Source: a virus
Reading direction: 5' to 3' (one strand)
Length of the DNA stretch: 60,777 bases
Virus record (IMG/VR): IMGVR_UViG_3300045988_022004
This document shows positions 5,405 to 40,890 of the stretch, piece by piece (the stretch's first letter is position 1; every line of letters begins with the position of its first letter). The notes under the pieces are model-generated. The model was not told the origin of the DNA, ran no database searches, and was given only the letters and a program-made list of their open reading frames with translations. The position numbers and the translations under genes are program-made.

Positions 5405-5672
5405 TATATATCTCCTTTTTGTTTTGAGGGTAAATGAAACTTCCGTATTGGCCCATTTCATTTGCCTTGTTTACATAGTAATCCTGATTAGGTCTGTGAC
5501 TAGCGTCGGCATCTCTTTTTACTTCAAGTAACGCCCATCCTTCTTTTGCTAACAAAACCAAATCAGGAATGCCCTGTTTATAATTAGGGTCGTTCTTTAA
5601 AATAATAGAATCTGGAAATAACTCTTTTAATTCCGAAATTATATCGGACTGAATTTTGTTTTCTTTATTCAT
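5346..5672 (-). CDS. VRR-NUC domain nuclease.
   Basis: GIPDLVLLAKEGWALLEVKRDADASHRPNQ matches the G-x-PD...E-x-K...Q pattern. Confidence 0.6.
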   Translation of the reverse strand: MNKENKIQSDIISELKELFPDSIILKNDPNYKQGIPDLVLLAKEGWALLEVKRDADASHRPNQDYYVNKANEMGQYGSFIYPQNKKEIYNGIQEAFASKRRRSRISRS

Positions 5673-5807
5673 TGTTCTCCTTTCGTAGGGCCGGAGGTAA
5701 ACGTAATGGCAGAATTTATTTTATACAGTTGCAGAACTTTAATCAATAAAAAGAGCCCCACGAAAAGATGAGCAAAAGGAAAAGAGGCAGATTCGTCTCT
5801 CTCCCCT

Positions 5808-5832
5808 ATAATAAGCTATGTTTTTTTCGCGA
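5808..5832 (-). promoter_or_regulatory. Promoter-like cassette P1: TCGCGA-N13-TATTAT on the minus strand.
   Basis: It has the same geometry as 15 other copies. It lies directly after the helicase stop and is followed by a leader of about 135 nt before gene 5346..5672. Confidence 0.45.
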
Positions 5833-5834
5833 GG

Positions 5835-18347: not shown

Positions 18348-19316
18348 TCATCTCGGTGATACTTCTCCGTAGATGCAACCATCACAATTGAAATCGATCA
18401 GTAATACTCTCTCATTTTCACCGGTCTCCTCGTTCGGGATCATAACCCACTTGGTAAGGAATGTTACATTGTTGTCATACTTACCGTACTCTGGGTCTTT
18501 CTGACTACGATATTTCCATCCGTGAGTCAGACCAATGTCAGTAGGCTTTAAACCGATCATACGGTATACATCATTCAGTGTAAGGATGCCTTCACATTTT
18601 AACCGGGTATCTGCTTCCTTCTCACGCTGAGCGAGCATAAATTCATTCTGCGGATTGTCATTGAACCATTCAGTAGAGTTCTCTTTTGTGAAGAGTCGTG
18701 CGTACGGTGAGCCGCCGAAGTTTCTGATAATCTCCTGCTCTTCAGTTACTTTCTTTTTCTCACCTGTCTCTGGGTCTGTCTCAGTCTTCTTGACTGTCTT
18801 CTTCTCTGAACCGTACAGCATTTCCTTGTCAACTTCTTCACCATACTTGTTAATTACATTTTGACGGTATGTCTGGTAAGCCTTAGCGATTGCTGCACAA
18901 GATGCTGCTAATGCTGCCTGACGCTGCTTCATAATGTGATGAGATCCGAGAATAAGACCAATAGATACTGCTTCAAGAATGACAGGTCCTGCATAGAGCT
19001 TAATATACTCCAGTGCTGTCTTACGCTTTAAGAGAACCATGTCATTGGTTGCGTCTTCTCTTGTGTAAGCCTGATCAAGAGATTCTGGATCTTCTTCATA
19101 CTTTGCTGCTGTCTCTACAATCTTCTGCTTTGTTGCTTCCTCATTACTCTTTACTGCTGCCACTTTAAGAGTAGCTTTCTGTGTCATGATCAGAGCTCCA
19201 ATGCCTACTCCAATACCTGCAAATAACATGATCTCCGGAGAGTTCATTTTGGTCCAGGCCTTAGTATGACCTACTACTGTTGATAAACTTGTTACTGCTG
19301 TGTCTAATGCTTTCAT
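18348..19316 (-). CDS. Two-TM membrane protein; family member 1 of 3.
   Basis: Two hydrophobic helices followed by AALAA...YxxYRxxV, shared with 22164..22994 and 23011..23838. Confidence 0.65.
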   Translation of the reverse strand: MKALDTAVTSLSTVVGHTKAWTKMNSPEIMLFAGIGVGIGALIMTQKATLKVAAVKSNEEATKQKIVETAAKYEEDPESLDQAYTREDATNDMVLLKRKTALEYIKLYAGPVILEAVSIGLILGSHHIMKQRQAALAASCAAIAKAYQTYRQNVINKYGEEVDKEMLYGSEKKTVKKTETDPETGEKKKVTEEQEIIRNFGGSPYARLFTKENSTEWFNDNPQNEFMLAQREKEADTRLKCEGILTLNDVYRMIGLKPTDIGLTHGWKYRSQKDPEYGKYDNNVTFLTKWVMIPNEETGENERVLLIDFNCDGCIYGEVSPR

Positions 19317-19334: not shown

Positions 19335-20636
19335 TTAGAAATATGCATACCATTCTTCGCCATTTAAACGATCATCATCATTCTCTGCTGACTCTAATAT
19401 CTTATGAGTGTAGACGAAATCCAAAATATACTTTCCGTCTTCGGTGCGCGGTTTGAATCTTGAAAAGAGATCCTTCCACGGAAGCTTAACAATAAAAGTA
19501 TCTGTGTCCTCAGGAATAATGAAATTCGCATCAGCGAGAATATCGCGAATAGAAAATGTCTTTTTGCCAAGCTTATTAAAGAAGTTTGCAATGAACATAT
19601 CTCTAACCAGTTCGCTGGTAAATACAATTGATGTACATGTTCCAGCATACATATTCATAGAATAGTATACTTCTGCATGTCCTGAAATCTTTGACTCATA
19701 GATAACACATGGACCATGATCAGTCTTGATATTCTTTGATGTCTCAGTACTGGAATCTTTGTAATAGAACACTAATGCATACTTTCTATCTTTTTTAGTT
19801 AATGCAAAGCTTGTAAAGATGTCCTTCCACTGTACTTTTTCTGAAAAGCAATCAGTTTCTTCTGGCAGAGGTATAGAGATATCTGATAAAACATCTCTGA
19901 TAGAAAACGGCTTGTATGTAGCACTGGTAAGCTTTTTAAAGAAGCTATTAGAGAATCGTTTTCTAGCAGCTCTACTGTTAAACAGAATTGTTGTGCACAT
20001 ACCTGGATGCATGTTTGCAGAATAGAACACGTCGACAGAACCAAGATCATTCGATTCATAGACAATTCGCGAATCCGGCGCTTTATAGTTGAATATCAAT
20101 TCATACTTACCGTCATCTTCGTTAATAGAGAAACTATCAAGAACTCTGTCCCAGTACACAAGATCATCCCAATTATTCCATTTGTTTCTTTTTGTGAACT
20201 TGAATTTCATCTCTAATGAAACATCTGCAATAGAAAACTCGGTATATCCTTCGCTAATTATATCGTAAAGTACACTCTCGAATTCTTCTGCAGCGTCCTT
20301 CGTTTCAAAGATTAACTTTGTAGGCATTCCGTTAGGATTCGTTCCTGCGAATATCCATACGCGTCCGTATTCGTTCGAATACCATGTATCCCACAGTTTC
20401 TCTGCTGCATCGCATACTGCGTCCATATCTGTGATCAGATAGTCCAGATAATTCCGAGCTTTCTTCAGATCCTCGACTCCATTTTTCTTCTGGAATCTAA
20501 GCAGATACTTTAAAGTATTCCATAACATTGCAGCCCGCTTTCCTGGCAGGTCCTTGACTACATCATTCAGAATATCAATAGCTTCAACACCTGCAATATT
20601 CTGATAATGCTCTGGATGATTTATATTGTCTGACAT
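19335..20636 (-). CDS. DUF3310-like N-terminal domain followed by three internal repeats of about 95-105 aa.
   Basis: HPEHYQN...EAIDIL...NTLKYLLRFQKKNGVEDLKKARNYLDYL, then a thrice-repeated motif (V.VFYSANM..G.CT.I.F.S...FS.RD.L.D....). Confidence 0.6.
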   Translation of the reverse strand: MSDNINHPEHYQNIAGVEAIDILNDVVKDLPGKRAAMLWNTLKYLLRFQKKNGVEDLKKARNYLDYLITDMDAVCDAAEKLWDTWYSNEYGRVWIFAGTNPNGMPTKLIFETKDAAEEFESVLYDIISEGYTEFSIADVSLEMKFKFTKRNKWNNWDDLVYWDRVLDSFSINEDDGKYELIFNYKAPDSRIVYESNDLGSVDVFYSANMHPGMCTTILFNSRAARKRFSNSFFKKLTSATYKPFSIRDVLSDISIPLPEETDCFSEKVQWKDIFTSFALTKKDRKYALVFYYKDSSTETSKNIKTDHGPCVIYESKISGHAEVYYSMNMYAGTCTSIVFTSELVRDMFIANFFNKLGKKTFSIRDILADANFIIPEDTDTFIVKLPWKDLFSRFKPRTEDGKYILDFVYTHKILESAENDDDRLNGEEWYAYF

Positions 20637-22163: not shown

Positions 22164-22994
22164 CTACATTATCTCACGATAATCAAATCTTGGGTTTGCA
22201 AAATATCCAACAGTCAGGCATGGCTTCCCGTTTCGTAACGTCGAGTCGAACTGAACATCCAGATAAGTGTCAGGAGTCCATCCTACATCATCACCAACTT
22301 CCACATGGTTTGCGTCTACTTCGTCGTAGAATTCATTCAGAGATATAAACATTTCTCCAGAGAGGAATCGATCTTTGATCCTGCTAACCGCCTGCAATAC
22401 ATCATTTCTTGTTGAGTAGAATACGTTGCCGGTGAACAGATCAATACAAACTTCTTTTCCGTCAGGAGCACCTTCAAACTTAGATTCTGGGATCTCCTTT
22501 ACCTGCTCGTCTCTAGCAGCCTTGGTAGCTTTGGCATCAGTCTTCGGGGATACCTTGGCTACGTTTCTACGGTATCTGTCGTACGCATTTGCTGTAAACT
22601 CATACATTGCTGTCATGGCAGTAAGTCTAGCTGTGCTGATCTTATACGATCCAACGAATGCCGAGATACTTAATGCTCCCAAAATTACTGTAGGGACATA
22701 GCACTTCCAGCAAGACTTTACAATCTGCTTAGGTCCAAGTTCTTCAAATCTATAAGCCATATCGGATTTTGCTACAGACATTGGGAGTTCCTCGTATTCA
22801 ATCTCTCCCCTTTCATACCTGTTCGCAATCTCGTCATCCATTTTGTCGATTGCTAATGGTGTAGCTTTGACCGCACTTATTACAGTAGCAGCCAGCCCTC
22901 CAATTCCAGCGATCATAAGAAGCATAGGCGCATTCTTATCGGCAACTACTGGAATCTTGTTTGCCTCCTTGATTAAGTTGTTTAAAAAGCTCAT
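22164..22994 (-). CDS. Two-TM membrane protein; family member 2 of 3.
   Basis: See 18348..19316. Confidence 0.65.
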   Translation of the reverse strand: MSFLNNLIKEANKIPVVADKNAPMLLMIAGIGGLAATVISAVKATPLAIDKMDDEIANRYERGEIEYEELPMSVAKSDMAYRFEELGPKQIVKSCWKCYVPTVILGALSISAFVGSYKISTARLTAMTAMYEFTANAYDRYRRNVAKVSPKTDAKATKAARDEQVKEIPESKFEGAPDGKEVCIDLFTGNVFYSTRNDVLQAVSRIKDRFLSGEMFISLNEFYDEVDANHVEVGDDVGWTPDTYLDVQFDSTLRNGKPCLTVGYFANPRFDYREIM

Positions 22995-23010: not shown

Positions 23011-23838
23011 TTATATCATGCTTGACTGATACTCTAAATCTTTGAACCAGCCTTTGGCTTCTCGTTTCTCTGTTTTTGTTGCCATAAATAATCCATGCGG
23101 TAAGTCGAGATATCTTATATAATATCCTTCGCTATTTTCAAACGGTACTAACTGAATATCAATCCATTCGTCAGTCTTATCATTTTCATCCATATCAATC
23201 TTAGACCAACCAACGATGTCTCCAAAACATGTCGGATTTAAATCAAGATCATATCTAAACTGATTCAAAGTCACTGTCTGATTTGGATTCATGACTAATT
23301 TCCTATTTAGTTTTAGTATAGCAGATTCTACTGTTGCTTTATCGGCATAGAATCCTTGGTCTGTCAGGCTGTCAATGAAGAATATCAATCCAGTAGTATC
23401 TACGAATTTTGATTCCTGCTCAGATACTGTTTTCGTTATTGGTGTTCTGCTTGCCTTCCAAATATCTTCTTCTTTTTCTTTACCTACCTCGTGTACTACT
23501 TCGTCTCTATATCTTTTAAAGTTCGCCTGTAAAAGACTCATAGCACCTGCTAATGCAGCGAGCTGTTTCTTATTTAAGAAGTTTGATCCAAAGATGCACC
23601 CTATTGTAGCAGCGCCAACTACAATAGACGGAGCATAAATCGGAGCTACAACCTTTACTTCTTCAATAAACGTAAGCTCTCTATGCTTCTTTTTCTCGAC
23701 CTCATCGATTTTAAGTGTCGCCTTTATAGATGCCTTATTAGTAAGCATATTAGATACGACTACGCCTATAGCCGCACCTATAGACAAGATAGTAGGCATG
23801 TTTCTTTTAATAAAATATCCCACCTGTTCAGTGTTCAT
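23011..23838 (-). CDS. Two-TM membrane protein; family member 3 of 3.
   Basis: See 18348..19316. GGAGTCAAAATG start context. Confidence 0.65.
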   Translation of the reverse strand: MNTEQVGYFIKRNMPTILSIGAAIGVVVSNMLTNKASIKATLKIDEVEKKKHRELTFIEEVKVVAPIYAPSIVVGAATIGCIFGSNFLNKKQLAALAGAMSLLQANFKRYRDEVVHEVGKEKEEDIWKASRTPITKTVSEQESKFVDTTGLIFFIDSLTDQGFYADKATVESAILKLNRKLVMNPNQTVTLNQFRYDLDLNPTCFGDIVGWSKIDMDENDKTDEWIDIQLVPFENSEGYYIRYLDLPHGLFMATKTEKREAKGWFKDLEYQSSMI

Positions 23839-30420: not shown

Positions 30421-30645
30421 CTACTGCCTTTTTGCCGAAGCAGCTTTGCGTTTGTTATGCTGGCTGGTGCTAATACCGAGCAGAGCACCAAGAAAAGTAT
30501 CTACTGCAGTAATAGTTCCTACGACCTGGTCTCCATACGGAAGACCCCAGATGGTAGCAAGTGTAAAATACAGAGTACCAATCGCTGGTAAGGCAATCAA
30601 TGCAATCCATTTAAGAATATCATACTGTTTATTTGTTAACTTCAT
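30421..30645 (-). CDS. Holin, resembling the Dp-1/phi-LC3-type small two-TM holin family.
   Basis: MKLTNKQYDILKWIALIALPAIGTLYFTLATIWGLPYGDQVVGTITAVDTFLGALLGIS with a basic tail. The ATG at 30645 follows GGAAGGAGAAAG. It is the last gene of the late operon. Confidence 0.6.
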   Translation of the reverse strand: MKLTNKQYDILKWIALIALPAIGTLYFTLATIWGLPYGDQVVGTITAVDTFLGALLGISTSQHNKRKAASAKRQ

Positions 30646-30973
30646 TTTGACTTTCTCCTTCCGATATTGGTGGTACGGTAAATATTTTGAGTCGGTTGAC
30701 TCCCTCCATAACCCTCTTTGCTGAGCCATTTCCGCCTAGTGCTTTGTACGGTTCGTAAAGATAGTCGCTCAGATTCTCATATTCATCTTTGGTGATCCAT
30801 CCGCGTTCGATGTATGTCATTCCTAACGCTACAATGCGGTCATGGGCCAGTCCAATGAGCATCTGACTTTGTAACGATTTTTTGTCATCTTTTTTCTGGA
30901 GCCAAGCCCAGAATCCCGAGGATGCAATAACCGAGCACAACACAGTAATAATTATCGATACGATGCTTTCCAT
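30629..30973 (-). CDS. Protein with an N-terminal TM helix, in the lysis-cassette neighbourhood.
   Basis: Hydrophobic N-terminus (IVSIIITVLCSVIASSGFWAWL); adjacent to the holin. Confidence 0.55.
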   Translation of the reverse strand: MESIVSIIITVLCSVIASSGFWAWLQKKDDKKSLQSQMLIGLAHDRIVALGMTYIERGWITKDEYENLSDYLYEPYKALGGNGSAKRVMEGVNRLKIFTVPPISEGESQNEVNK

Positions 30974-30983
30974 AATTTCCTCC

Positions 30984-31367
30984 TTATGCGATTACTCTAT
31001 CAAGTTCATAAGGAATAAACATCCATGCGTCATTACCTAATACAGAATAAGCTATTGAAAATATCTTAGTTCCATAATCGGCTATAAAGTTGCAGACCCA
31101 TTCTTCAGCCCATATCCAATATTCTGGCTTTACAACCTTATGAATATCGTCTAGCAAACTGTAACTAACAAGAGCACAATGACCTAGCTCATGGATAAGA
31201 ACCTTCATAAGGAGTGCACCAGATAAGCTCCTCGACATGAATATAGTTGCAAGGTTTGAGTCTGTGGTGGCTAATGTCATTTTTCCAGTCCTATCCATAA
31301 GCATTTTGTCATTTGGGTTTACGAACTTTATCCTCCATAAATATCCATTCATTGAGAATCTGTCCAT
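30984..31367 (-). CDS. Small HExxH zinc metallopeptidase (ImmA/IrrE- or SprT-like minimal fold).
   Basis: The VLIHELGHCAL motif in a 127-aa protein. Confidence 0.5.
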   Translation of the reverse strand: MDRFSMNGYLWRIKFVNPNDKMLMDRTGKMTLATTDSNLATIFMSRSLSGALLMKVLIHELGHCALVSYSLLDDIHKVVKPEYWIWAEEWVCNFIADYGTKIFSIAYSVLGNDAWMFIPYELDRVIA

Positions 31368-31381
31368 AATCGCAGTTCTCT

Positions 31382-32014
31382 TTAGATACTCATGCTGTCT
31401 ACTAATGTAGAAAGTTCGGTTTTCATTCTGCGTTTCAATTCAGGGCTGGCTTCACTCCAAATGTCACGCATAGAGATAATGGCCTTCTCGACATGTTCTT
31501 CTCCATGCTGTTCCATTCTCTCTTTATCTTCTGATGATCCAGTTTTTGTATAATGTTTTCTTGCATCAGACCAAGAATCATATGCAGCCCCATAAGTGCT
31601 GACTGGTTTATTCATCATTTTTGGATCATTTTGATCAATGTAACCGTAACGAAGTTTCATCTGATCTGCAAACTCTGTTGGATCTCCAGTGAGATACTGC
31701 TGCATAATGTAGTCTTCACCTTCTAAATATGGCATATATCCATATCTGGTTCCATGCCCAGTTGAAGCATATCTACCACTAGAAGCATAACGATTTGGGT
31801 TGTAACCGTAAGATCCATCGCCCATAGCCTCTACAATCGACTTATAATATTTCGACTGCATGCAGTAGTTCTCAGCTTCATAAATATCTTTGATCATATC
31901 GACAACTTCGCCCATTTCATGAGCATCTACGCACTCAATTCCATGAGAAAGCTGTTCTTTGACCGAATCTACAAGAGTTGCCTTAATAGAACAGAGATCT
32001 TTCATCTTTTCCAT
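31382..32014 (-). CDS. Hypothetical Tyr/Gly-rich protein.
   Basis: Track ORF with the central stretch GSYGYNPNRYASSGRYASTGHGTRYGYMPY. Confidence 0.6.
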   Translation of the reverse strand: MEKMKDLCSIKATLVDSVKEQLSHGIECVDAHEMGEVVDMIKDIYEAENYCMQSKYYKSIVEAMGDGSYGYNPNRYASSGRYASTGHGTRYGYMPYLEGEDYIMQQYLTGDPTEFADQMKLRYGYIDQNDPKMMNKPVSTYGAAYDSWSDARKHYTKTGSSEDKERMEQHGEEHVEKAIISMRDIWSEASPELKRRMKTELSTLVDSMSI

Positions 32015-32029
32015 TTTGACGACACCTCC

Positions 32030-32434
32030 TTAGGCAAGCCTACGAACAATAAAAGCGCTGTTAGCAGCGACAGTTACGTCCGCAGTACCATTATTAGTTA
32101 CGGTTATACGATCGTAGTCCCCGCAGCAATTCTTGATTAAAGTTGAAGTAGCTACGTTATTAGAAGCGTTAGCGGCTCCAGGAGTAGCAACCATAGTTGT
32201 CTCTGCCAGGGTTACGCCACCTAATTGAAAAGCAAGCTGCACTGGAGTGCCTGCAACGGCACCCGAGATGTTACCAGCAAAAGAAGCTTCATAAATACCA
32301 TTAGCTCTCATTTTGACAGATCCTGTGTTTTCCCTATGGCACTCAGCACAGCCTGTTTTGAGAAGAACTTTGTCAAAGGTAATGGACTGACCCGCAGGTA
32401 TTACCTGGGCAGTAGTATTTGATAATTCAATCAT
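32030..32434 (-). CDS. Stand-alone beta-rich domain resembling the BclA C-terminal / C1q-TNF-like trimeric head.
   Basis: 134 aa, rich in A/T/G/N/V. The pattern is IPAGQSITFD...NGIYEASFAGN...LAFQLGGVTL...ITVTNNG...AFIVRRLA. The assignment is by pattern only. Confidence 0.3.
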   Translation of the reverse strand: MIELSNTTAQVIPAGQSITFDKVLLKTGCAECHRENTGSVKMRANGIYEASFAGNISGAVAGTPVQLAFQLGGVTLAETTMVATPGAANASNNVATSTLIKNCCGDYDRITVTNNGTADVTVAANSAFIVRRLA

Positions 32435-32453
32435 TTTATAATACCTCCATACA

Positions 32454-32481
32454 AGGGAGAGCCAATTTCTAGACCCTCCCT
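32454..32481 (-). other. Intergenic hairpin: AGGGAG / CUCCCU stem with a 16-nt loop containing GGUCUAGA.
   Basis: Read directly from the sequence, between 32499 and 32434. Confidence 0.4.
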
Positions 32482-32498
32482 AATCATTTTGACGTTAA

Positions 32499-32978
32499 TT
32501 AGCAGCAACCGTTATTAGTTGATCCGCAGTAGCATCCAAACCCGTAATTAGCATATGGATTTGGTACTGTAAATGCCGGAACAGCAGCTGGACGTAACTG
32601 ATTAACGAGATACTGGTTCTGAGCACACTGAGATGCTGTAAGCTCCAGTTTGTTAATAGCAGCCTGCTGGCTAGCGATTGTCTGATCTTTTGCATCCATC
32701 TGCATTTTGACCATTTCATCATGCAGAGCGCGATAGTTGGCATTATCATTGTCAATAATGTCTCTTGTCTGATTTTGAATAGCGTTAGTGATAGCGCATG
32801 TATTTGTAGCCATATCATACTGAATCTGAGCCTGACCCTGACGGTTCTGGCAGCAGCAATCAGCTAACTGTGTCTGGATAGCATTTGTTGACTGTAAATT
32901 TGCGATATTGGAAGCATTAGCACTGTCACTAATAGCATTCTGAAGAGCGTTAGTAGACTGAAGCAGGCTAGTGTTCAT
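32499..32978 (-). CDS. Q/N/A-rich coiled protein with an internal CCC and a C-terminal Cys cluster (GFGCYCGSTNNGCC).
   Basis: 159 aa from ATG 32978. It has three NA(L/I)QN-type repeats. The track's TTG start at 33104 runs through the leader hairpin. Confidence 0.55.
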   Translation of the reverse strand: MNTSLLQSTNALQNAISDSANASNIANLQSTNAIQTQLADCCCQNRQGQAQIQYDMATNTCAITNAIQNQTRDIIDNDNANYRALHDEMVKMQMDAKDQTIASQQAAINKLELTASQCAQNQYLVNQLRPAAVPAFTVPNPYANYGFGCYCGSTNNGCC

Positions 32979-32992
32979 AGCATAGAATCCAT
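32975..32992 (-). promoter_or_regulatory. 5-codon upstream ORF (MDSML) whose TGA overlaps the ATG of 32499..32978.
   Basis: AAAGGAG-N10-ATGGATTCTATGCTATGA. The ATGA overlap suggests translational coupling. Confidence 0.35.
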
Positions 32993-33033
32993 AGCAAAAC
33001 AGCTCCTTTCTTATTTTGATTGAAATGTTCTTA

Positions 33034-33065
33034 TCCCTAGACACAAACGAGTAAAAGTCTAGGGA
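33034..33065 (-). other. Perfect 9-bp hairpin TCCCTAGAC-N14-GTCTAGGGA in the leader of 32499..32978.
   Basis: Read directly from the sequence. Confidence 0.6.
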
Positions 33066-33144
33066 TGTTATTAAATTTTCTTTTAACGTCGCTTGGACGA
33101 TCAAAAATTACTGCAATGGAATCACCTCCCTAAACCATTTTGAT

Positions 33145-33483
33145 TTATGTCAAAGACTCGCTGGTAGCCTCTGATTCGGATGTAACAATTGGATCGTTCT
33201 TGTAGGCTCTGATGGTGACATCATTAGATAACCCATCATGGATCTCAATAACATTGTCCAGTTTGAACCCGTCGAATGTAGTGACATTTTCATTGTCGTC
33301 TGTGATCTCCATATGAGAGATATTGTCGGCATTGCGGGCCGTAGAAGCGATTCTGTCAAACACTGCTGGGGATTCATATGTTGAAGTAATGTTCAGATAA
33401 GTTCTACCTGATTGATTCTGAGCATACTCTCTTGTAAATTTGCGAATATCAACTGTCGTTCCGTTTCCGAATTTAAGTTTCAT
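33145..33483 (-). CDS. Hypothetical protein.
   Basis: Track ORF; its start overlaps the radical-SAM gene's stop by 11 nt. Confidence 0.6.
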   Translation of the reverse strand: MKLKFGNGTTVDIRKFTREYAQNQSGRTYLNITSTYESPAVFDRIASTARNADNISHMEITDDNENVTTFDGFKLDNVIEIHDGLSNDVTIRAYKNDPIVTSESEATSESLT

Positions 33484-34810
33484 TTTGATCCTCCTTACTT
33501 AATTCTTTAAGCATATTAAGTTCTTCCTCTCCAATAATAGGAATGGCCCATTCATCTGGGCAGTATATTTTGAATCTCTGTTTCCAATGTTTCTTACGAT
33601 ACCACTTATTCCAGAAGTATGCATTTGCAAGAGATCGGGTCTTGTGCATATCGCAAATATAAGTACAACGAGAATCTGGAGTTCCATTTTCTTGGTAGTT
33701 GTACGCAGAGCACCAACTGCAACCCTCGGCTATAGGGCAATAGAAGCATTCGTCACTAGACTCTGTTCTTCTGTTGATCTTATTCAGACATTCAACGCAT
33801 TGCTTGTCGCATGTTCTCTGTGCAATCCCGAAATTTACGTGGCCAATTCTAAGCGGTTCTCGAGATGTTCCTAGACTGCTCTCCATATATCTTATACATG
33901 GATAAAGCCATCCGTCTGGGTCCATCGCCAGCATGAAGCCAGTTCCTCCACACCAGTTTTCGACATCCGTTTCTTCCTTTGGTTTGAAGAAGTCATTCTC
34001 GAATAATGCCATGAAATGGTCGTCGGCTAAGTCATTTTCAAGCCAATAATCGGCTAACATTTTGAGCTGCTCATAATAGATTTTTGCATGCTCCAATGTC
34101 CATCCCTTTTCATAAACGACGTTCGCATTGATATCTTTGTATCCAAGTTCTACCATATGTTTAATCGCCGAGAATAGATGCTGCACATTACCTGGTGCTA
34201 TGGTGATCTTAGAGCCCATATAGTATCCTCTTGATATCCAATCACGAGCTCCAGCTACTGCCACATCATAAGACCCAGTACCATCTGGAAAGACTCTACA
34301 AGCATCATGCAGAGCCTTATTTCCATCGATGGTAATTGAGAAAGAGAGATTATGCCGCCATTTGTTCAGGAACTTCTGAACCTTAGGCTCAAAATATAAT
34401 ACACCATTTGAGCAAATCGAAATACAAAATTTTGTTGCCCATGGGTGCATCAACTCGATAGCCTTATCATAGAAATACGTGCAAATCTGATCAATAAGAT
34501 CCACGCATAAGAAAGGCTCTCCGCCAATAAACTCAATGATAATGCCAGGTGATGTAGAGGCGTCGATGTAGTTACCGAGGCGTTCATCTCCAGTAAGAAG
34601 CATATCAATGAGTTTCTTTGCATCTTCGAATTTCATTTTTCTCTTACCTTTGTTTATCTGATAGCAGTAAGTACAGCATAAATTGCACTCGTCTGTTACT
34701 TGAAAGGTCACGGTACGAGATAAAGTTCTTCTGTCAGATGCATTATTTGTAATAATTGTCTCAGGATACAACCTTCCGATCATATCCTGAAACTGTTCGA
34801 ACTTCTTCAT
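33473..34810 (-). CDS. Radical SAM enzyme with a C-terminal SPASM-type auxiliary cluster domain (peptide-modifying / anSME-like class).
   Basis: CNLCCTYC (CxxxCxxC, nt 34664-34687), FIGGEPFL, WCGGTGFMLAMDPDGWLYPC, and CFYCPIAEGCSWC...C. Confidence 0.8.
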   Translation of the reverse strand: MKKFEQFQDMIGRLYPETIITNNASDRRTLSRTVTFQVTDECNLCCTYCYQINKGKRKMKFEDAKKLIDMLLTGDERLGNYIDASTSPGIIIEFIGGEPFLCVDLIDQICTYFYDKAIELMHPWATKFCISICSNGVLYFEPKVQKFLNKWRHNLSFSITIDGNKALHDACRVFPDGTGSYDVAVAGARDWISRGYYMGSKITIAPGNVQHLFSAIKHMVELGYKDINANVVYEKGWTLEHAKIYYEQLKMLADYWLENDLADDHFMALFENDFFKPKEETDVENWCGGTGFMLAMDPDGWLYPCIRYMESSLGTSREPLRIGHVNFGIAQRTCDKQCVECLNKINRRTESSDECFYCPIAEGCSWCSAYNYQENGTPDSRCTYICDMHKTRSLANAYFWNKWYRKKHWKQRFKIYCPDEWAIPIIGEEELNMLKELSKEDQNET

Positions 34811-34814
34811 AGGC

Positions 34815-35144
34815 TTAGCCCTCTAATACGGTAATGTGTACGAGGTGCTCTGAAAAGTCTGTTACTGCCCATCTGAATTTAACATCTTTTCCTTCATGCT
34901 CCAGAACACGAGGCTGTAAAGACTTTTCTAACTCAGCTTTAGCAATGTCGTAGGAACACTCAGCCTCTTCAAGCAGTTTGTGATAATGCTTAAATGGTAC
35001 TGAGTCCAGCACTGAAGCATCCGTATCATCTTTCGCCGACTCAAGCATATGAGCTACAACGTCTTTTCTAGTCATAACCTCGTATGCAAGTCTCTGTAAA
35101 TAGTCAGCTGTTTCCTTGTTAAGTTCTAATGTAAAGTTTTTCAT
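34815..35144 (-). CDS. Hypothetical acidic helical protein; possible partner or chaperone of the radical-SAM enzyme.
   Basis: Track ORF between the Cys-rich gene and the radical-SAM gene. Confidence 0.55.
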   Translation of the reverse strand: MKNFTLELNKETADYLQRLAYEVMTRKDVVAHMLESAKDDTDASVLDSVPFKHYHKLLEEAECSYDIAKAELEKSLQPRVLEHEGKDVKFRWAVTDFSEHLVHITVLEG

Positions 35145-35217
35145 ATTGGTTAACTCCTTTTCTTTTAATTCATTTTATATTTCTGTTATTTCGAATAGCA
35201 CTTCGATATAGGATCTA

Positions 35218-36285
35218 CTATCCTGAGACTACAGCTCCAAATGCTTGAGCTTGACAGGTACCAGTGCACGTTGCTGAACATGTGGTAGCGCATGCGTTTT
35301 TACACTGACCGCTACACCCATTACTACACCCATCACAATTTCCAGTACATGAACCGTAACATCCAGAACCACATCCTGAACATCCACCACAGCCTCCAGA
35401 GCAGCCAGCACAACCTTGGCATCCAGTTGTACATGACGATTCGCAGCTGGCCGAACACCCACTACACCCACTACAGGATAAACTACACGAGCCAGAGCAT
35501 GCGCCATCACATGAGGAACAAGTTGATCCGCAACCGCTACAACCGCTACAACCGCTACATGACGAACATGATGAGCATGAGCTAGCACACCCCGTGCAAC
35601 TATAGCATGTTGCGCATGACGAACCTTTACCACTTGCTGAACATGAACTAGAACAAGATCCTCCACATCCAGCGCACCCAGAACAACTCTGGCATGATCC
35701 ACTGCACCCATTGCATCCACTGCACCCATTGCTACATCCGTCACAGCTACCAGTACATCCACTACATCCAGTTGTACATGTGCCAGAGCATGAGGAACAT
35801 TCGCTACACCCACCACCGCAATTACCGCTGCATCCGCCGCATCCGCTTGATCCACTGCCACCAGATCCTCCAGATCCAGTACATCCACCAGAGCAGCTAC
35901 TACAGCCGCTACATGTATTACCGCACGTCCCTACACATAGTCCAGAGCATGCTCCACGACATGAAGAGGTAGCCCCATCGATTGGCTCTTTAGACAATGT
36001 GTCAGTGTAAGATAGTAACTCGTTGTTGAACGATGACGGAATCTTAGATCCTGTCTTAAGATCGGCAGTATTCAAATTGCCATGGTCCTTAATATTCAAC
36101 AAAGGCTCGATTACTTTTTTGCCTTGGTCAGCGGTGACTTTGGTTCCAGATGTAGGAGTTGTGGAGAAGTCGTACGATGCAGATGCGAACCCAGTCATAG
36201 AACCATTGTATGCTCTACGCTGCATTTCCGTTTTTACCTTAGCTTTTAGAGAGTTTACCTCTGCCGCGGTAAGAAAATTAGGCAT
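35218..36285 (-). CDS. Hyper-cysteine repeat protein: a 108-aa N-terminal domain followed by about 235 aa of (C-X2-3)n made of C/S/G/T.
   Basis: The ATG at 36285 follows AAGGAGGTTGAAGATA. There are 63 Cys after residue 108, for example CSGCSGCSGCGSTCSSCDGACSGSC. Confidence 0.7.
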   Translation of the reverse strand: MPNFLTAAEVNSLKAKVKTEMQRRAYNGSMTGFASASYDFSTTPTSGTKVTADQGKKVIEPLLNIKDHGNLNTADLKTGSKIPSSFNNELLSYTDTLSKEPIDGATSSCRGACSGLCVGTCGNTCSGCSSCSGGCTGSGGSGGSGSSGCGGCSGNCGGGCSECSSCSGTCTTGCSGCTGSCDGCSNGCSGCNGCSGSCQSCSGCAGCGGSCSSSCSASGKGSSCATCYSCTGCASSCSSCSSCSGCSGCSGCGSTCSSCDGACSGSCSLSCSGCSGCSASCESSCTTGCQGCAGCSGGCGGCSGCGSGCYGSCTGNCDGCSNGCSGQCKNACATTCSATCTGTCQAQAFGAVVSG

Positions 36286-36416
36286 TATCTTCAACCTCCT
36301 TTTCAAAAGATTTATCTGATTTTTCCTCCAGGGGATTTTTTACATTTCGTTTTTCGTTATCTTTTGTAAAACGATCATTTCCCGATAAATACATTATCCA
36401 TATCCCCCATTTTGAA

Positions 36417-38801
36417 TTATCCCCATATCGCTGCTAATGGTACCCAGGCAGAACCATTGTAAAACCTAGCTACACCTGACGTATCAATCCATAGAAGCTT
36501 TGTATTAGATGGGGCTGAAGCGCCGTAAGAAGTTCCACCAGACGATAGCTCGGTTACAGTTCCATCTTCAGCAACATGCTTCATAGCATTTCCATTACCA
36601 GAGTCAATCCATAAAGTGCTCCTTTTGGCGTTTGGCTTTGAATCTGATTTAACAACGTCAGAACCATATATATCTAAAGCTCTAGTTGGAGTCCATTTAC
36701 TTCCGGTCCAATATTGTATGAGACTTCCACTAGATGGGTCAATCCATAAATCTCCAACTTTAGGATTAGTAGGAGCGTTTACCCCATAGCTAACGCCTCC
36801 AGACTCTGCTGATTTCTTGATTGACTCTAACAGATATTTACCATTAGGAGCATCTGCGTGGAATGACTGAACATTTCCTGGAGAGATTATATGAGTAACC
36901 GAATCGAATGATTTTAGATCGAAATTAGGAAACTTTGTATCTTCGGTGATCTTCATAGTAGAGGATTGGTATGGGGCGAATACTGTTGTGTCGGAATCGT
37001 CAAGAGTTACCATGATGTCCGAAATTGTAGCATTAACATTTGAAGCTGGGTTATTATGTTGAATCGCAATAATGACATGATGTTCGCTCCAATCATAAGC
37101 ATCATGTTTTAAAATATCAGAAAAGTTTTTAACATATACATTTGTATTTGTAAAAACTTGAATGTACGCTTCAACATTAGTTACACTTTTTTTAGCGCTT
37201 ATTTTTAGGTCATGTCCCGCTTTTAGCATTCTCAAAAGAAATGCATTACATTCATCCGTACTAATAATGAAAGCTAAAAATGATTTTTCAGTTGTTCCTT
37301 CGATTTTAATCATTCCTTCTTTTAAAGCTGTAAATGTGAGACCATTATTATTCGCAGTTTTCTGAGCATACGGATAAGAAAGAATATTCTTCCCGTATGT
37401 CTTAATATCATATCCAGAATATGGGACGAAATCGTCTATTGTAGCTTCTAGATCAGTTGTAACCATTGGCTTAAATATAAGATTTGTCACTGTTGTTCCC
37501 TTATTAATATATAACCGATAATTTAAATAAGGATAAGCATCATTTATAATTACCCCATTTCCAATATCAGATGCTACAGCTTTCAATTCTGAATTTAATT
37601 CGGAACTATTATAATAACAAACGTCAATTCGGTAAGTGTCTTGGCTTCCATTTATAGGGCAACCTAGCATCTTACATCCCCCAACAGTATTTTCAAATGG
37701 GACCGATTGCGAGCTATTACCTTGTAAATAAAACACATAGTTTTCACGTGCAGTGCCATCCAGTTTCAGCGTACCATCATTGATTTTAGTCATTTTTATC
37801 CCATAACCACTATGCGCTGCGAATGGTGGTTTTAATAAATTCCTCATGGCATTACCTAACATTAACGGAGCTTCGACAGTACCTGTTAGATCTGTTTTCG
37901 TTGACTCGATAAGAGACACTTTCTCTTTGCCTAGCTTTTCTGTTTCCAGAGTAAGTTTAGCACCAAGGTCGCCTTCGAGTTTGTTTTTCATATTCTCAAA
38001 CCACTTATCGAACTCGGCCTGAGATGATTTTTCCCACTGCTGGAATGTTGACCAGTTAGCATCGTAAGCGGCTTTAATCGTAGCAAACCACTGGTCATAG
38101 CCGTTCTTAATACTATCATACCATTCCTGATAATCCGATTTTGAAGTTGCTTCCCAATCAGCAATCTCTTTCTTAGCGGCAGCAAGCCAAGCCTGATAAT
38201 CCTGTTTCTCGCCATTCATCCAGGTATTGAAATTTGCGGTATTCTCCTCTACAAACTTATTCAAGATATCTTTCCACTGAGGTATAAGCTGTTCGATGCT
38301 AATTACCTCAAGAATACCTGTAACAAACGGGCAAGCGCTCGTCCCTACACAGTTCTCAATATCTGCCTGCCTAATGGACGTAACCTCTTTGCCAACCTTA
38401 ACGTAAGCCAACGGATACTGATGAACTTCCTTAGTATTTGTCAGTGCTGGCTTGGTAGGTGTAGAAGATGGCGTTCCTTTAATTAGTTTAATGCTGTTTG
38501 CTCTTACGGCCTCAACAGAGTTTATCTCCAAAACAATTGCGTCAATTCGGTCCATAAGAATCTCTGATGGTGGAATTGTCACTGGGTAAAGCGCATCGTT
38601 GTAACTCCAAGTATGATTGAACCATGCTCGGCCAGTTCCAACTGTTACGTTCATCTGGTTGCTTTGCTTAACGACCATACAGTCACCAATAGATGCAAAA
38701 ATTCCATCTCGAATTAAGCCATCAAATAATCTTGAAATGTCGGTAGCATCATATAATCTATCATGATCTACGGAATTAAAAAATCCAGATGCAAAACTCA
38801 T
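36417..38801 (-). CDS. Tail fibre / receptor-binding protein.
   Basis: 794 aa directly after Tal. The N-terminus FFNSVDHDRLYDATDISRLFDGLIRDGIF is typical of Firmicutes phage fibre proteins. The C-terminus has a threefold ...LWID...W.P repeat. Confidence 0.65.
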   Translation of the reverse strand: MSFASGFFNSVDHDRLYDATDISRLFDGLIRDGIFASIGDCMVVKQSNQMNVTVGTGRAWFNHTWSYNDALYPVTIPPSEILMDRIDAIVLEINSVEAVRANSIKLIKGTPSSTPTKPALTNTKEVHQYPLAYVKVGKEVTSIRQADIENCVGTSACPFVTGILEVISIEQLIPQWKDILNKFVEENTANFNTWMNGEKQDYQAWLAAAKKEIADWEATSKSDYQEWYDSIKNGYDQWFATIKAAYDANWSTFQQWEKSSQAEFDKWFENMKNKLEGDLGAKLTLETEKLGKEKVSLIESTKTDLTGTVEAPLMLGNAMRNLLKPPFAAHSGYGIKMTKINDGTLKLDGTARENYVFYLQGNSSQSVPFENTVGGCKMLGCPINGSQDTYRIDVCYYNSSELNSELKAVASDIGNGVIINDAYPYLNYRLYINKGTTVTNLIFKPMVTTDLEATIDDFVPYSGYDIKTYGKNILSYPYAQKTANNNGLTFTALKEGMIKIEGTTEKSFLAFIISTDECNAFLLRMLKAGHDLKISAKKSVTNVEAYIQVFTNTNVYVKNFSDILKHDAYDWSEHHVIIAIQHNNPASNVNATISDIMVTLDDSDTTVFAPYQSSTMKITEDTKFPNFDLKSFDSVTHIISPGNVQSFHADAPNGKYLLESIKKSAESGGVSYGVNAPTNPKVGDLWIDPSSGSLIQYWTGSKWTPTRALDIYGSDVVKSDSKPNAKRSTLWIDSGNGNAMKHVAEDGTVTELSSGGTSYGASAPSNTKLLWIDTSGVARFYNGSAWVPLAAIWG

Positions 38802-38825: not shown

Positions 38826-39965
38826 TTAAGAGCCGACTGGTATTCTGTTATCATCGGCGCTTACAAAGTCTGTAAAAGTAGGGTATGAAGTTTCCCCACT
38901 AGAATCTTGGGACATAATAAATTCCGACACGGTCGACGTCCCCTTAATACCATAGTCGTTTTCTATCTGTACTATATCCCCCATTTTGAAATCTCTTCCA
39001 TACACAAACATAGTATGAGGATCGACGTCCCCGTCCATAGATATTGTATGTGGCTTCTCAGCTAGAGCCTCTTTGCCCTTCTGAGCAACTACTTTTAATC
39101 GTTCGGCGTCGCTCATCTTATGGTCCTCATCCTCAGATGTTATAGATCCCGCGTCAACATATATCTCACATCTATGCATTCCGCTTAATTGTTTCTGGGA
39201 TTCCCCATCCCTAGTTACTTCTTTAGTAATCTTCAATGGATTCCCTGATAACGTCTGTGTATCTCCATCCTCCCCAACAGTTAATGCAACATTCGCGTAA
39301 TCTTCTTTACTGTCAAGATAAGATGTGTTATTTAAGTTTTCAAATGACGGACTGAATACAACATATGGAGTTAATTGCTGTGCATAAGATCTATCGATAC
39401 CTTTGTACAGCTCAAACTCGAATTGTTTATTTTCATTTAGTGTAATTTTAAACCCAATTTGTTTCTCGACACAAAGTGAGTTTATTGCCTCGTATAAGTT
39501 TTCATGTTGCTCATATTTAGCGTCAATTGTTAAAGCAGTTATTCTGCTGTCTGTACTCTTCTTGAATACAAAGTTAGAAATCTTTCTTTCTGATTTTGAC
39601 GGCGATATGATAGCGTCATTTATTAGCTTCTGTACGCCATCTTGGAAATTGCCACTCAGGGTAGTATTGTCCCAGATGATCCTACGCTTCAATAAGCTCT
39701 CAAGGGAATAACCTATTACTTTAATTGTAGGTCCTTCTGTGGCATTTGTTTCTAGAAGCATTCCCTGAATAATCATCATGTGAACTGAACTATCATTTTG
39801 AAGATAGTAATCGTTGACTAGATAAGGGAATACCCCATCCATATCCAAAGTGAGGTATAGTTCAAAGTCCCCATTTTCTTGATACCTATCAGTCCAAATG
39901 AAGGACTTGAACCTGTCAATGATGGCTACTTTTTCAAACCGTGAGTTTAATATTGTAGCTTCCAT
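38826..39965 (-). CDS. Tail-associated protein (Tal; prophage-tail endopeptidase N-terminal type).
   Basis: Follows Dit. The N-terminus ILNSRFEKVAIIDRFKSFIWTDRY is typical of siphophage Tal proteins. Confidence 0.65.
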   Translation of the reverse strand: MEATILNSRFEKVAIIDRFKSFIWTDRYQENGDFELYLTLDMDGVFPYLVNDYYLQNDSSVHMMIIQGMLLETNATEGPTIKVIGYSLESLLKRRIIWDNTTLSGNFQDGVQKLINDAIISPSKSERKISNFVFKKSTDSRITALTIDAKYEQHENLYEAINSLCVEKQIGFKITLNENKQFEFELYKGIDRSYAQQLTPYVVFSPSFENLNNTSYLDSKEDYANVALTVGEDGDTQTLSGNPLKITKEVTRDGESQKQLSGMHRCEIYVDAGSITSEDEDHKMSDAERLKVVAQKGKEALAEKPHTISMDGDVDPHTMFVYGRDFKMGDIVQIENDYGIKGTSTVSEFIMSQDSSGETSYPTFTDFVSADDNRIPVGS

Positions 39966-39981
39966 TATTTACCTCCTTAAA

Positions 39982-40890
39982 TTATACTCCTTCATAGATT
40001 GTATCATTTTCAATCTTGAACTGAATACTCATTGCGCCTTCTGTAGCATTGTAAATGAAGATGTTATCTCCTTTTGACAGCTGAAACCAACTAGATCCTT
40101 TGCCTAGACAGTTTAGAATGTTTGTTGTCAGTCCAGCTCTCAATAATGTAACTGACTTTTCTCCTCGCTTAGTGTTAATGATAATATCATCTCCAGCACC
40201 ATATGCTTGTCCAGTTAAGGTCTGTATAAAGTCAGTATTTATCCTCATAACTTCACGAGTTCTAGCATTATAGATTACGATATCTTTTACCGTATCTAAT
40301 GCATGAATCGTTATTATTATGCCAACCGAAGCATCTCCTTTGTACGTTACTATATTCTCGTACATATGCACAATATCGCCGAAGTTTATGAGCTTTTCAG
40401 TTAACGAGTTGTTTTCAAATGGAAATTCAAATTTAGGATTGACGCCACTAAATAATGTAAGCGTCTTTCCATTAGTTGCATAAAAGTATGGATCTGGACA
40501 AATTACGGAAATCTGAGTTGCTTCGTGTTCCTGGAATATTGCAGGTTCATTTGACTCGACGTAACCGAAAGCGTCAAGAGATCTCTGATCCGTTACAAAT
40601 GTCAACGTGACGTATCTCTTGATAGGGAAATACTTATATGTAGTATGTCTAATAGTTTCGATGTCCGTTCCGAATCTAAAGTCCAGATCCATAACAATGT
40701 TTCTAGTTTCAAGCTTAGCACTATTGTATAATGCTCCGTCGCCGGTCGCTATCTCACTAGTATTGATCGTGGCCTTTACAGGCCCTAATCCATCGATGTT
40801 TGTTATAGCTAGACCCGAAACCTCAGGCCTAGCTAATTCCATTTCTAGGGATTCCCCTAAATAATTAGTAACAATTACTTTCTTTATCAT
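39982..40890 (-). CDS. Distal tail protein (Dit).
   Basis: Directly after the tape measure gene. Contains VTNYLGESLEMELARPEVSGLAITNIDGLGPVKATIN. Confidence 0.75.
   Translation of the reverse strand: MIKKVIVTNYLGESLEMELARPEVSGLAITNIDGLGPVKATINTSEIATGDGALYNSAKLETRNIVMDLDFRFGTDIETIRHTTYKYFPIKRYVTLTFVTDQRSLDAFGYVESNEPAIFQEHEATQISVICPDPYFYATNGKTLTLFSGVNPKFEFPFENNSLTEKLINFGDIVHMYENIVTYKGDASVGIIITIHALDTVKDIVIYNARTREVMRINTDFIQTLTGQAYGAGDDIIINTKRGEKSVTLLRAGLTTNILNCLGKGSSWFQLSKGDNIFIYNATEGAMSIQFKIENDTIYEGV

Follow-up and report, generated by a model that had tools for sequence, protein, structure and literature searches.

A radical-SAM/SPASM maturase and its probable cysteine-repeat target in the tail-fibre region of a siphovirus

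Described thioether-forming systems and the phage locus

The closest described relatives of the system presented here are those in which a radical S-adenosylmethionine (radical-SAM) enzyme with a SPASM domain forms thioethers in a peptide or a protein. Here, we analysed positions 30984..36285 of a viral DNA of 60,777 nt (IMG/VR record IMGVR_UViG_3300045988_022004; this whole stretch is called the window below), in which a radical-SAM/SPASM maturase (33473..34810) is encoded near a protein with a long array of Cys residues (35218..36285). Together with two small accessory proteins, of 109 and 112 aa, these two form a conserved four-gene cassette. On balance, we favour a picture in which the enzyme would put many thioether cross-links into a protein associated with the tail fibre, although this preference is a modest one.

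In the PapB/freyrasin system the thioether rings are of the Cys-X3-Asp type (PMC12373016, PMC10177961). PapB, the second-best match of the window enzyme among profile hidden Markov models (HMMs), is like it a SPASM enzyme without an N-terminal extension that would hold a recognition element (RRE) for peptides made on the ribosome and modified after translation (RiPPs), and in both substrates there is a Cys at every fourth residue, which suggests a series of small rings. However, the window substrate would offer 63 donor Cys instead of six, it is a protein and not a short peptide, it nearly lacks Asp and Glu acceptors, and it is encoded by a phage. QhpD, the third-best match, is also a SPASM enzyme, which introduces several thioethers into a protein subunit (QhpC) with no leader peptidase involved. 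In this case the window enzyme scores 106 bits where the cutoff is 453, and the few cross-links of QhpC go to Asp and Glu within an enzyme complex, whereas the window target is a low-complexity repeat in a tail module. CteB is a clostridial thioether-forming SPASM enzyme with a Cys-rich substrate, but it has an N-terminal RRE, absent from the window enzyme, and it acts on a peptide of about 45 aa with six Cys.

The window system differs from the characterised thioether systems in the size and the Cys count of its substrate, in having two accessory proteins of its own and in its place in a tail-fibre cluster. It is also unlike them in that it has no Asp/Glu acceptors, RRE, peptidase or transporter. 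Since neither a leader peptidase nor an exporter is present, it resembles QhpD/QhpC, or the anaerobic sulfatase maturase (anSME) and its sulfatase, more than it resembles the classical RiPP systems.

The pairing of such an enzyme with such a target is already known in silico through curated NCBIfam names. An earlier reading of the same DNA, made without database searches (the sequence-only reading), had stated that no phage system of this composition was described; this was too strong, as NCBIfam names both the enzyme family, TIGR04115, and two families of Cys-repeat targets, TIGR04114 and TIGR04117. The full name of TIGR04115 is 'radical SAM peptide maturase, CXXX-repeat target family'. The window enzyme spans the model of this family, and its neighbour has a Cys at every third or fourth residue, as the name describes. 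On the other hand, the window target has 355 aa, a conserved N-terminal domain (N-domain), mixed CXX and CXXX spacing and no match to TIGR04114 or TIGR04117, while the family was defined in silico and its name does not reflect a setting among phage tail-fibre genes. In full-text searches of the literature, no paper came up that deals with radical-SAM systems for CXXX-repeat targets or with their occurrence in phages, and TIGR04115 appeared in one paper, there solely as a domain hit.

On the side of the virion, the analogues to be considered are the collagen-like GXY fibres of phages and the gp38 adhesin of the T2/S16 type, in which conserved Gly-rich motifs flank hypervariable segments. The window target is similar to these proteins in that an N-terminal domain is joined to a low-complexity scaffold, the scaffold (here of Cys) is conserved while the residues in between vary, the gene comes after the fibre gene, and some variants have exchangeable C-terminal domains. 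However, no homology in sequence or in structure was found, and no fibre protein is known to be Cys-based or dependent on a radical-SAM enzyme.

The maturase, its target and the accessory proteins

The genes of the cassette (33145..36285) are as follows.

35218..36285, minus strand: Cys-repeat protein, the probable target, with 355 aa if counted from the ATG; the TTG further upstream, at 36306, is an alternative start
34815..35144, minus strand: accessory protein of 109 aa, conserved directly upstream of the radical-SAM gene; isoelectric point 5.2
33473..34810, minus strand: radical-SAM/SPASM maturase of 445 aa, TIGR04115
33145..33483, minus strand: accessory protein of 112 aa, its start overlapping the end of the radical-SAM gene by 11 nt

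The enzyme reached 495.6 bits (E 1.1e-148) with TIGR04115, residues 32-399 covering model positions 2-359 of 359, and the curated cutoff of this model is 350 bits; by its profile match it is a full member of the family. A nucleotide- or cofactor-modifying enzyme, the outcome which the sequence-only reading had held against its own proposal, was not found, as TIGR04115 is a family of peptide/protein maturases. The next-ranked NCBIfam models were PapB (167.4 bits, cutoff 340), QhpD (106.2 bits), the SCIFF maturase (95.5 bits) and CcpM (86 bits), and each score was below the cutoff of its own model; this was also the case for the anSME model (54.5 bits, cutoff 349). The nearest solved structure by sequence is that of CteB (5wgg, E 1.2e-18). 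The CX3CX2C motif is located at 34664..34687 (C42-x3-C46-x2-C49) and the SPASM Cys at 33653..33952 (C287-x12-G300-x4-C305; C355-x2-C358-x5-C364-x2-C367; C386), so that the description of the gene as a radical-SAM/SPASM enzyme with a full SPASM set was borne out; all of these residues were invariant in an alignment of 12 sequences. Since the radical-SAM core begins at about residue 32, there is no space for an N-terminal RRE.

Homologues of the enzyme are numerous (3383 at E<=1e-30). For variation at short distance we used 43 IMG/VR phages (L001-L043) whose enzymes are 98-100% identical to that of the window. Among these variants the synonymous divergence (pS) of the radical-SAM gene was 0.30 and the nonsynonymous divergence (pN) 0.0077, which gives a pN/pS of 0.026. 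The enzyme is under strong purifying selection, and the near-invariance of the protein despite a pS of about 0.3 argues that it matters to the phage.

About a tenth of the 120 homologues listed contain inteins, recognised by the Pfam families for Hint, intein splicing and LAGLIDADG (P0077, P0055, P0043, P0065, P0071, P0080, P0084, P0090, P0092, P0097 and P0101). In the two that were aligned, the intein interrupts the protein exactly at a Cys ligand of the SPASM clusters, which is C287 for P0077 and C367 for P0055 (insertion after the Cys in both), thus at least two independent insertion sites exist at functionally critical positions. Membership in a PADLOC defence system was also considered for the enzyme and rejected, the matches being due only to a generic, viperin-like radical-SAM similarity.

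The association of the enzyme with a Cys-rich protein was assessed in 17 GTDB loci, prophages of different genera of Clostridia, with enzymes 41-75% identical to that of the window (from Agathobacter, Blautia, Eubacterium, Lachnoclostridium, Anaerosporobacter, Anaerolentibacter, Emergencia and unclassified Clostridiales), in four metagenome contigs and in one deposited gut phage at 37%. A Cys-rich open reading frame (ORF) is found beside the radical-SAM gene in 16 of the 17 GTDB loci, the 17th being N-masked, and a gene of the 109-aa type stands directly 5' of the radical-SAM gene in the genome and metagenome loci. One locus (L061) has two tandem targets, of 483 aa with 102 Cys and of 485 aa with about 100 Cys, and another (L063) has a single target with 93 Cys. 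The pattern of enzyme and target is repeated in L067, where the enzyme is 37% identical, and the enzymes of L058 and L059, at 42-45% identity, are still above the TIGR04115 cutoff. We therefore hold it as very probable that enzyme and Cys-repeat protein work as a pair. The cassette is not accompanied by any conserved RRE, either fused to the maturase or beside it, nor by a conserved leader peptidase or exporter, and no transporter was present in any locus inspected. Precursors that are short and have their own conserved leader peptidase or exporter were likewise not found, the target being 355 aa long and the gene for an HExxH protein in the window, described below, not co-occurring with the cassette.

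The target itself consists of an N-domain of 108 aa (35962..36285) and of a CXX/CXXX repeat region of 236 aa (35254..35961, residues 116-351) which contains 63 Cys; the hyper-Cys repeat protein of the sequence-only reading is thus present as described. The distance from one Cys to the next is four (n=32) or three residues (n=28), with two exceptions, and C, S and G together make up 78% of the repeat stretch, from which Lys and Arg are nearly absent. The motif at the junction of the two parts, SSCRGACSGLCVGTCG (35920..35967), is conserved, and the protein ends with ...CQAQAFGAVVSG, a form which we call headless. No match of the N-domain was found in Pfam, PHROG or PDB. A simple tandem DNA repeat or a slippage artefact is ruled out by the diversity of codons in the repeat, where all six Ser and all four Gly codons are in use, and by the output of TRF, which gave only short arrays of 9-18 nt. 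A diversity-generating retroelement as the source of variability in the repeat was rejected too: no template repeat was found in the window, where blastn of the repeat DNA gave only chance matches of 12-25 nt.

When a profile of the N-domain was searched exhaustively against 1.84 billion proteins, 516 cluster representatives were obtained at E<=1e-3, and in the best 149 of these 516 a run of Cys follows directly after the N-domain in 130. Across the family the spacing of Cys is four in 1882 cases and three in 423, and the proteins are 150-540 aa long. A word-indexed protein search gave five relatives for the N-domain and 15 for the 109-aa protein. Most of the database copies of the target (e.g. 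P0121-P0125) come from contigs of only about 1 kb and stop within the repeat, as if short-read assemblies break there, so the family is probably under-counted.

In 41 variants of the target recovered from the close relatives, no two sequences are the same. The Cys columns are conserved at 97.7%, the N-domain at 96% and the other columns of the repeat at 76%, figures which are approximate, as alignment of low-complexity sequence is imperfect, while the contrast remains large. The pN of the repeat region is 0.116. The Cys residues of the target are thus conserved while the residues between them diversify.

Ser/Gly-rich arrays of CXXC and CXXXC resemble the Cys clusters which bind metals, and the target could accordingly be a metal, Fe-S or disulfide protein similar to metallothionein, with the enzyme performing another reaction on it or on a different substrate, for example formylglycine conversion, epimerisation or C-methylation. 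The presence of anSME among the relatives of the enzyme (54.5 bits) would fit with this, and so would the lack of acceptor residues of the PapB/QhpD type in the target. However, the characterised relatives at the top of the ranking are thioether formers (PapB 167, QhpD 106 and SCIFF 95, vs 54 for anSME), the strict co-occurrence of the enzyme with the Cys repeat argues that the repeat is its substrate, and the curators of NCBIfam paired enzyme and target in the same manner. We regard such a metal or disulfide protein as quite improbable. Formation of thioethers in the repeat is, on the grounds of homology, the chemistry that we expect, with some reserve.

The C-terminal end of the target is variable. 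In about 24 of the 43 close relatives the protein does not end as in the window: ...AFGAVV is followed by a short linker and then by a globular domain of 136-193 aa, here called the head. At least two head families exist, one of about 190 aa with several divergent subtypes (52-64% mutual identity) and one of the 136-aa type. In other relatives the DNA of the head is present but no longer joined to the target, owing to a TGA or TAA stop in frame (L003, L004, L029 and L038) or to a shift of frame within the Gly-rich linker (L001, L006, L010, L019, L020, L027, L030, L031 and L041), and in the window as well as in L043, L018, L039, L017, L032 and L042 its DNA is cleanly deleted (the junction is at 35218..35253 in the window and at about 7050..7640 in L001-L043). 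These interruptions could mean that the head was lost repeatedly, that it is switched on and off, or that readthrough or frameshifting is programmed. In other genera the target usually stops about 12 residues or fewer past the last Cys, often after a C..Q.FG-like motif.

One subclade (L049, L050, L053, L055 and L056) has a target divided between two ORFs. Of these, the first, present in all five loci, contains the N-domain and about 12 Cys and has the end ...CG(S/T)GC(A/S)...; the second, in L049, L050, L055 and L056, has 41-50 Cys and its own Met and is located immediately downstream, partly overlapping the first (5780..6256 and 6205..6840 in L055). In L053 a separate ORF with 41 Cys is found downstream of the radical-SAM gene instead. 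The recurrence of the split in several genera speaks for a genuine arrangement in two genes, or for a programmed frameshift, and against a sequencing error. An extra Cys-repeat ORF 3' of the radical-SAM gene begins with MLKMNLQFFG/A in two loci (L052 2492..3145 and L053 9383..9910). This start resembles the N-terminal extension cleaved off by the host protease Prp in ribosomal protein L27 of Firmicutes and in some staphylococcal phage capsid and scaffold proteins, and it may be a host-processed leader.

With regard to the accessory proteins, the AlphaFold2 model of the 109-aa protein, which had been described as acidic and is mildly so, has a mean pLDDT of 91.9 and shows a three-stranded sheet packed on a long helical hairpin. 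A Foldseek comparison of the model with the PDB gave no match at E<=1e-3, only generic helical hairpins, and in BFVD the protein matches solely uncharacterised gut-virome proteins of about 90 aa. It is possibly an adaptor or a chaperone for the maturase. The 112-aa ORF, also present as the sequence-only reading had it, belongs to a family with no Pfam or PDB match, of which divergent homologues (MK.xLKDGTE...) are encoded in L044, L045, L047-L056, L061 and L063; a gene of this type sits either after the radical-SAM gene or between the target gene and the gene of the 109-aa type.

Tail-fibre setting and the downstream genes

The cassette is framed in the window by the following genes.

39982..40890, minus strand: Dit, 5' of the Tal gene (PF22768/PF05709)
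38826..39965, minus strand: Tal, Sipho_Gp37-like, 5' of the fibre gene (PF14594, E 3.5e-57)
36417..38801, minus strand: tail-fibre-like protein of 794 aa, 5' of the cassette (phrog_1220 and related virion-protein families)
30629..30973, minus strand: protein of 114 aa with an N-terminal transmembrane segment by hydropathy, at the lysis-side boundary
30421..30729, minus strand, start likely near 30645: Dp-1-type holin (PF16938, E 1.4e-29; phrog_4105)

The tape-measure gene is also located upstream of the fibre gene, and since tape-measure, Dit and Tal genes all lie on this side, the interval belongs to the distal tail region of its virus, a siphovirus of some 60 kb. All genes of the window are on the minus strand. 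The flanks named in the sequence-only reading, a fibre gene upstream and the transmembrane protein and holin downstream, were confirmed, but the interval between them holds eight ORFs and not ten.

The target gene comes directly after a fibre gene in the window and in L044, L047, L049-L051, L053-L056, L059-L061, L063 and L067, and the cassette is always found in or beside tail-fibre genes, in siphovirus-like as well as in P2-like baseplate contexts. More fibre genes follow the cassette in L061, L063, L067 and L058-L060; therefore, it is embedded in the fibre cluster and not just wedged before the lysis genes. The fibre of the window ends with the motif LLWIDTSGVARFYNGSAWVPLAAIWG (36420..36497), and the end motif LLWIDT..G...KY.NGS.W.P....WG is common to the fibres of L044, L047, L049, L050, L053-L056, L061 and L063. 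Among the phages with enzymes 98-100% identical, the fibres are 54-90% identical and the Tal proteins 96-100%.

Past the cassette, L063 (9403..15224) encodes a protein of 705 aa whose C-terminus is extremely rich in Tyr. Another radical-SAM protein, of 321 aa and not related to the first, is encoded there too, along with a GT8-like glycosyltransferase and a GHMP kinase, and this may be a further set of protein-modification genes within the tail region. In L055 and L056 a homologue of the 114-aa transmembrane protein comes directly after the radical-SAM gene and is followed by a small membrane protein and a gene of about 237 aa.

Between the cassette and the lysis side of the window there are four more genes.

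32499..32978, minus strand: Q/N-rich protein, 5'-truncated, ending with GFGCYCGSTNNGCC at 32502..32543
32030..32434, minus strand: protein of 134 aa (phrog_20016, E 1.7e-16)
31382..32014, minus strand: acidic protein of 210 aa with a Tyr-containing segment, no family match
30984..31367, minus strand: HELGH protein of 127 aa, a putative minimal zincin, with HELGH at 31179..31193 (residues 59-63)

The stretch 30984..36285 consists of two independent modules, namely the cassette (33145..36285) and these four genes (30984..32978), the latter being a separate, deletion-prone accessory module. None of the four accompanies the radical-SAM gene in the 17 GTDB loci, and even among the 43 phages with near-identical enzymes they are present or absent independently of each other. 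All four are missing from L003, L021 and L031, only the HExxH gene is kept in L001, the 210-aa and HExxH genes are kept in L043, and deletions have produced fusions in L009, L013 and L040, those of L009 and L040 involving the 210-aa protein. The fullest version, in L005 (9834..12796), has two extra genes, of 175 and 70 aa, which are absent from the window. The order of the six genes is there 175-aa Q/N/P-rich, 70-aa, 249-aa Q/N-rich (end ...GCYCGSSNNGCC), 134-aa, 210-aa and 127-aa HExxH. The module is found in unrelated gut phages at differing genomic positions. In the same order it occurs in Dulem virus 39 (L066 4357..7530) and in MT835516 (L069 18271..21078, a phage contig of 43 kb), with the 210-aa homologues weak in both, and neither of them contains a homologue of the radical-SAM enzyme, the Cys-repeat protein or the 109-aa protein. 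Homologues of the HExxH protein in the phage collection were limited to the four records with the best matches to the Q/N-rich protein. No PADLOC defence model was matched by the module.

The single genes correspond in part to what had been read from the sequence. The full-length Q/N-rich protein of L005 has 249 aa, a hydrophobic N-terminal segment and a match to phrog_16490 at positions 17-279, whereas the window copy covers only positions 96-279. Since the first 90 residues or so are missing, the Q/N-rich ORF, although present with its GFGCYCGSTNNGCC end as described, is a 5'-truncated remnant of the 249-aa gene. It has 10 Cys, five of them within the last 11 residues. The label of a BclA/C1q-like domain for the 134-aa protein is weakly supported: there was a weak match (E 5e-4) to the C-terminal part of phrog_30509, 'collagen like minor tail', no Pfam match was found, and no PDB sequence match was better than E 0.11, with none to BclA or C1q. 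This protein was also considered as a stand-alone head for headless targets and rejected, as its presence is not anticorrelated with that of a fused head. Tyr/Gly-rich is a loose description of the 210-aa protein, in which the 18 Tyr are outnumbered by Glu and by Ser, with 20 residues each, and the 15 Gly are equalled or outnumbered by Lys, Asp and Met. In the 127-aa protein the HELGH motif is real while the name of peptidase is carried by this motif alone, as phrog_1233 was matched at E 4.4e-5, Pfam DUF6782 weakly at E 0.27 and the PDB not at all.

The sequence-only reading had joined all of these genes into one system similar to those of sactipeptides or ranthipeptides. On this view, leader removal would fall to the HExxH protein, the Q/N-rich protein (...GCYCGSTNNGCC) would be modified as a second substrate, and the BclA-like and Cys-rich proteins would mimic a spore surface. 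It is true that the genes are co-linear on one strand, and that no promoter-like or terminator-like site inside the block exceeded shuffled expectation, so that a division of the block by internal promoters or terminators was rejected; the Cys-dense end of the Q/N-rich protein also speaks for this idea. However, the four downstream genes never accompany the enzyme in the 17 genome loci, they were deleted or fused independently among the 43 near-identical phages, the ordered module occurs in Dulem virus 39 and MT835516 without enzyme, target or 109-aa protein, the Q/N gene of the window is truncated, and the resemblance to BclA is not significant. A single system over 30984..36285 is thus very improbable. 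Since the module comes and goes while the radical-SAM gene is constant, and since it occurs without the latter, the HExxH protein is not the leader peptidase of the cassette. What was retained from the proposed grammar of peptide maturation is a SPASM radical-SAM enzyme with a Cys-dense substrate in a late or tail region, whereas the peptidase and the second substrate (32499..32978) were excluded; similarly, the expected co-occurrence of genes holds for enzyme and target (16 of 17 loci) but not for the four downstream genes.

On the other side of these genes no endolysin was recognised beside the holin, with 10 downstream ORFs examined. The 26 kb past the holin contain many small ORFs, among the products of the window being three DUF6353 paralogues (18348..19316, 22164..22994 and 23011..23838) and a DUF3310 protein (19335..20636). 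Many related IMG/VR contigs, mostly from dataset 3300045988, have about the length of the window (57-61 kb). It is probable that the window represents an entire genome and that the population behind it is diverse, with synonymous divergence of about 0.3 and core proteins 96-100% identical.

Proposed product of the cassette and its significance

The enzyme is predicted, from its homology to PapB, QhpD and CteB, to use 5'-deoxyadenosyl radical chemistry together with auxiliary Fe-S clusters, and it would link the thiols of Cys to carbon in neighbouring residues. As Asp and Glu are almost absent from the repeat, the role of acceptor would have to fall to Ser, Gly, Thr and Ala residues or to the Cys that follows. 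Many thioether rings would thereby be formed along the Ser/Gly/Cys-rich region and could turn a floppy segment into a rigid rod that resists reduction and proteases. Such cross-linking requires no oxygen, so it would suit an anaerobic gut host. Synteny and architecture suggest that the N-domain may serve for recognition, docking or both, and that the modified product may be a fibre-associated component of the virion with the repeat as a covalently braced scaffold, to which, in about half of the close relatives, an exchangeable globular domain is joined at the C-terminus. Adaptors or chaperones would be the roles of the two small proteins (109 and 112 aa), and no leader peptidase or exporter is expected to take part. 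Of the three readings offered earlier, oxygen-independent cross-linking of a fibre or decoration protein fits best, while the mimic of a spore surface found no specific support.

The remaining one, a phage-borne RiPP toxin released at lysis, is possible and belongs to a broader alternative, in which the product would be a very large RiPP-like toxin, signal or metal scavenger outside the virion, with the N-domain as its leader; it would build up in the cytoplasm late in infection, be freed when the cell lyses and act on neighbouring cells. TIGR04115 is indeed a family of peptide maturases, the target has no signal peptide and would need lysis for its release, and the cassette of the window is upstream of a holin. 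In some loci there are separate Cys-rich ORFs devoid of the N-domain, and the MLKMNLQFFA/G start in L052 and L053, which resembles the Prp cleavage motif of L27, would fit with removal of a leader by a host protease. Peptides of 69 and 132 aa with a leader and a Cys repeat, encoded beside a related radical-SAM enzyme in an Erwinia jumbo phage, also fit such a product. On the contrary, adjacency to the fibre gene is kept across tail types, with the cassette placed among fibre genes in L061, L063, L067 and L058-L060, and no peptidase, exporter or immunity gene is conserved. Moreover, targets of 150-540 aa, some with folded C-terminal domains, are not what such a peptide would look like, and the enzyme is under very strong purifying selection in a phage population while the residues between the Cys diversify as they do in exposed virion proteins. 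We thus consider a product outside the virion unlikely.

The Erwinia phage in question is Asesino (KX397364, L068), in which two radical-SAM genes are adjacent (2441..6302). One of the products, gp180, is PapB/TIGR04115-like with 130 and 122 bits, below both cutoffs. Just upstream of these genes are gp185 (132 aa from Met) and gp183 (69 aa), in which a leader of about 50 aa is followed by a CSG/CSS/CXXX Cys-repeat tail like that of the window target, and which adjoin a 'virion structural protein'. By annotation, SPN3US-like Salmonella jumbo phages have similar adjacent pairs of 'radical SAM superfamily protein'. The jumbo phages of Erwinia and Salmonella appear, from these gene contents, to have a sister system in phages of Gram-negative bacteria.

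Several observations speak against a thioether-braced fibre protein and have to be set against the evidence given above. The formation of thioethers by this enzyme is predicted solely from family resemblance. The repeat region contains just three Asp and two Glu in 236 residues, so the donor-acceptor motif Cys-X3-Asp/Glu of the known systems was not found in it. The 109-aa protein was rejected as an RRE, its model having no PqqD-like winged-helix fold, and the model of the N-domain (pLDDT 44.9 from an alignment of six sequences) is unusable. The window target did not match the TIGR04114 or TIGR04117 models even at E<=10, although a relative in L060 reached 19.5 bits on TIGR04114, where the cutoff is 20, and the composition filters of HMMER may suppress such low-complexity matches. 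The fibre end motif may be a general one and not a docking site, because it is also found at the end of a fibre in L061 (9964-11394) which has no Cys-rich gene next to it. Finally, the head domains have no match in Pfam, PHROGs, PDB or deposited phages, and the picture of a stalk with a receptor-binding head is weakened since headless forms are the norm in other genera.

Taking both sides into account, we give incorporation of the target into the virion, as read from gene order, chances slightly short of even. The most detailed version, in which phages would build a virion part with a type of enzyme otherwise familiar from RiPP pathways for natural products, namely a thioether-laddered rod or tip which docks on the tail fibre, with 63 donor Cys here and about 100 in relatives, and whose exposed residues or head diversify with host range, is tentative and rather doubtful as a whole.

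For further experiments it is of importance that the HExxH and Q/N-rich proteins and their neighbours form a separate mobile module, thus a design based on a peptidase plus a second substrate would be wrong. The system is abundant, with more than 3000 homologues of the enzyme and 516 clusters of the target, and tools of the antiSMASH type may score prophage cassettes as ranthipeptide or sactipeptide clusters in gut Clostridia, which would inflate estimates of natural products. If cross-linking of a fibre-associated protein is true, RiPP enzymology would gain a protein-sized iterative substrate for studies of processivity and for the engineering of stapled proteins. A phage structural protein with cross-links of the RiPP type would also be a first, and the target would be by far the most heavily thioether-bridged protein known. 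Phages of strict anaerobes would then brace an extracellular protein covalently, after its translation and without disulfides, which would be relevant to the stability of virions in the gut, and phage biology would have in the cassette a fibre accessory of a new and rapidly diversifying class.

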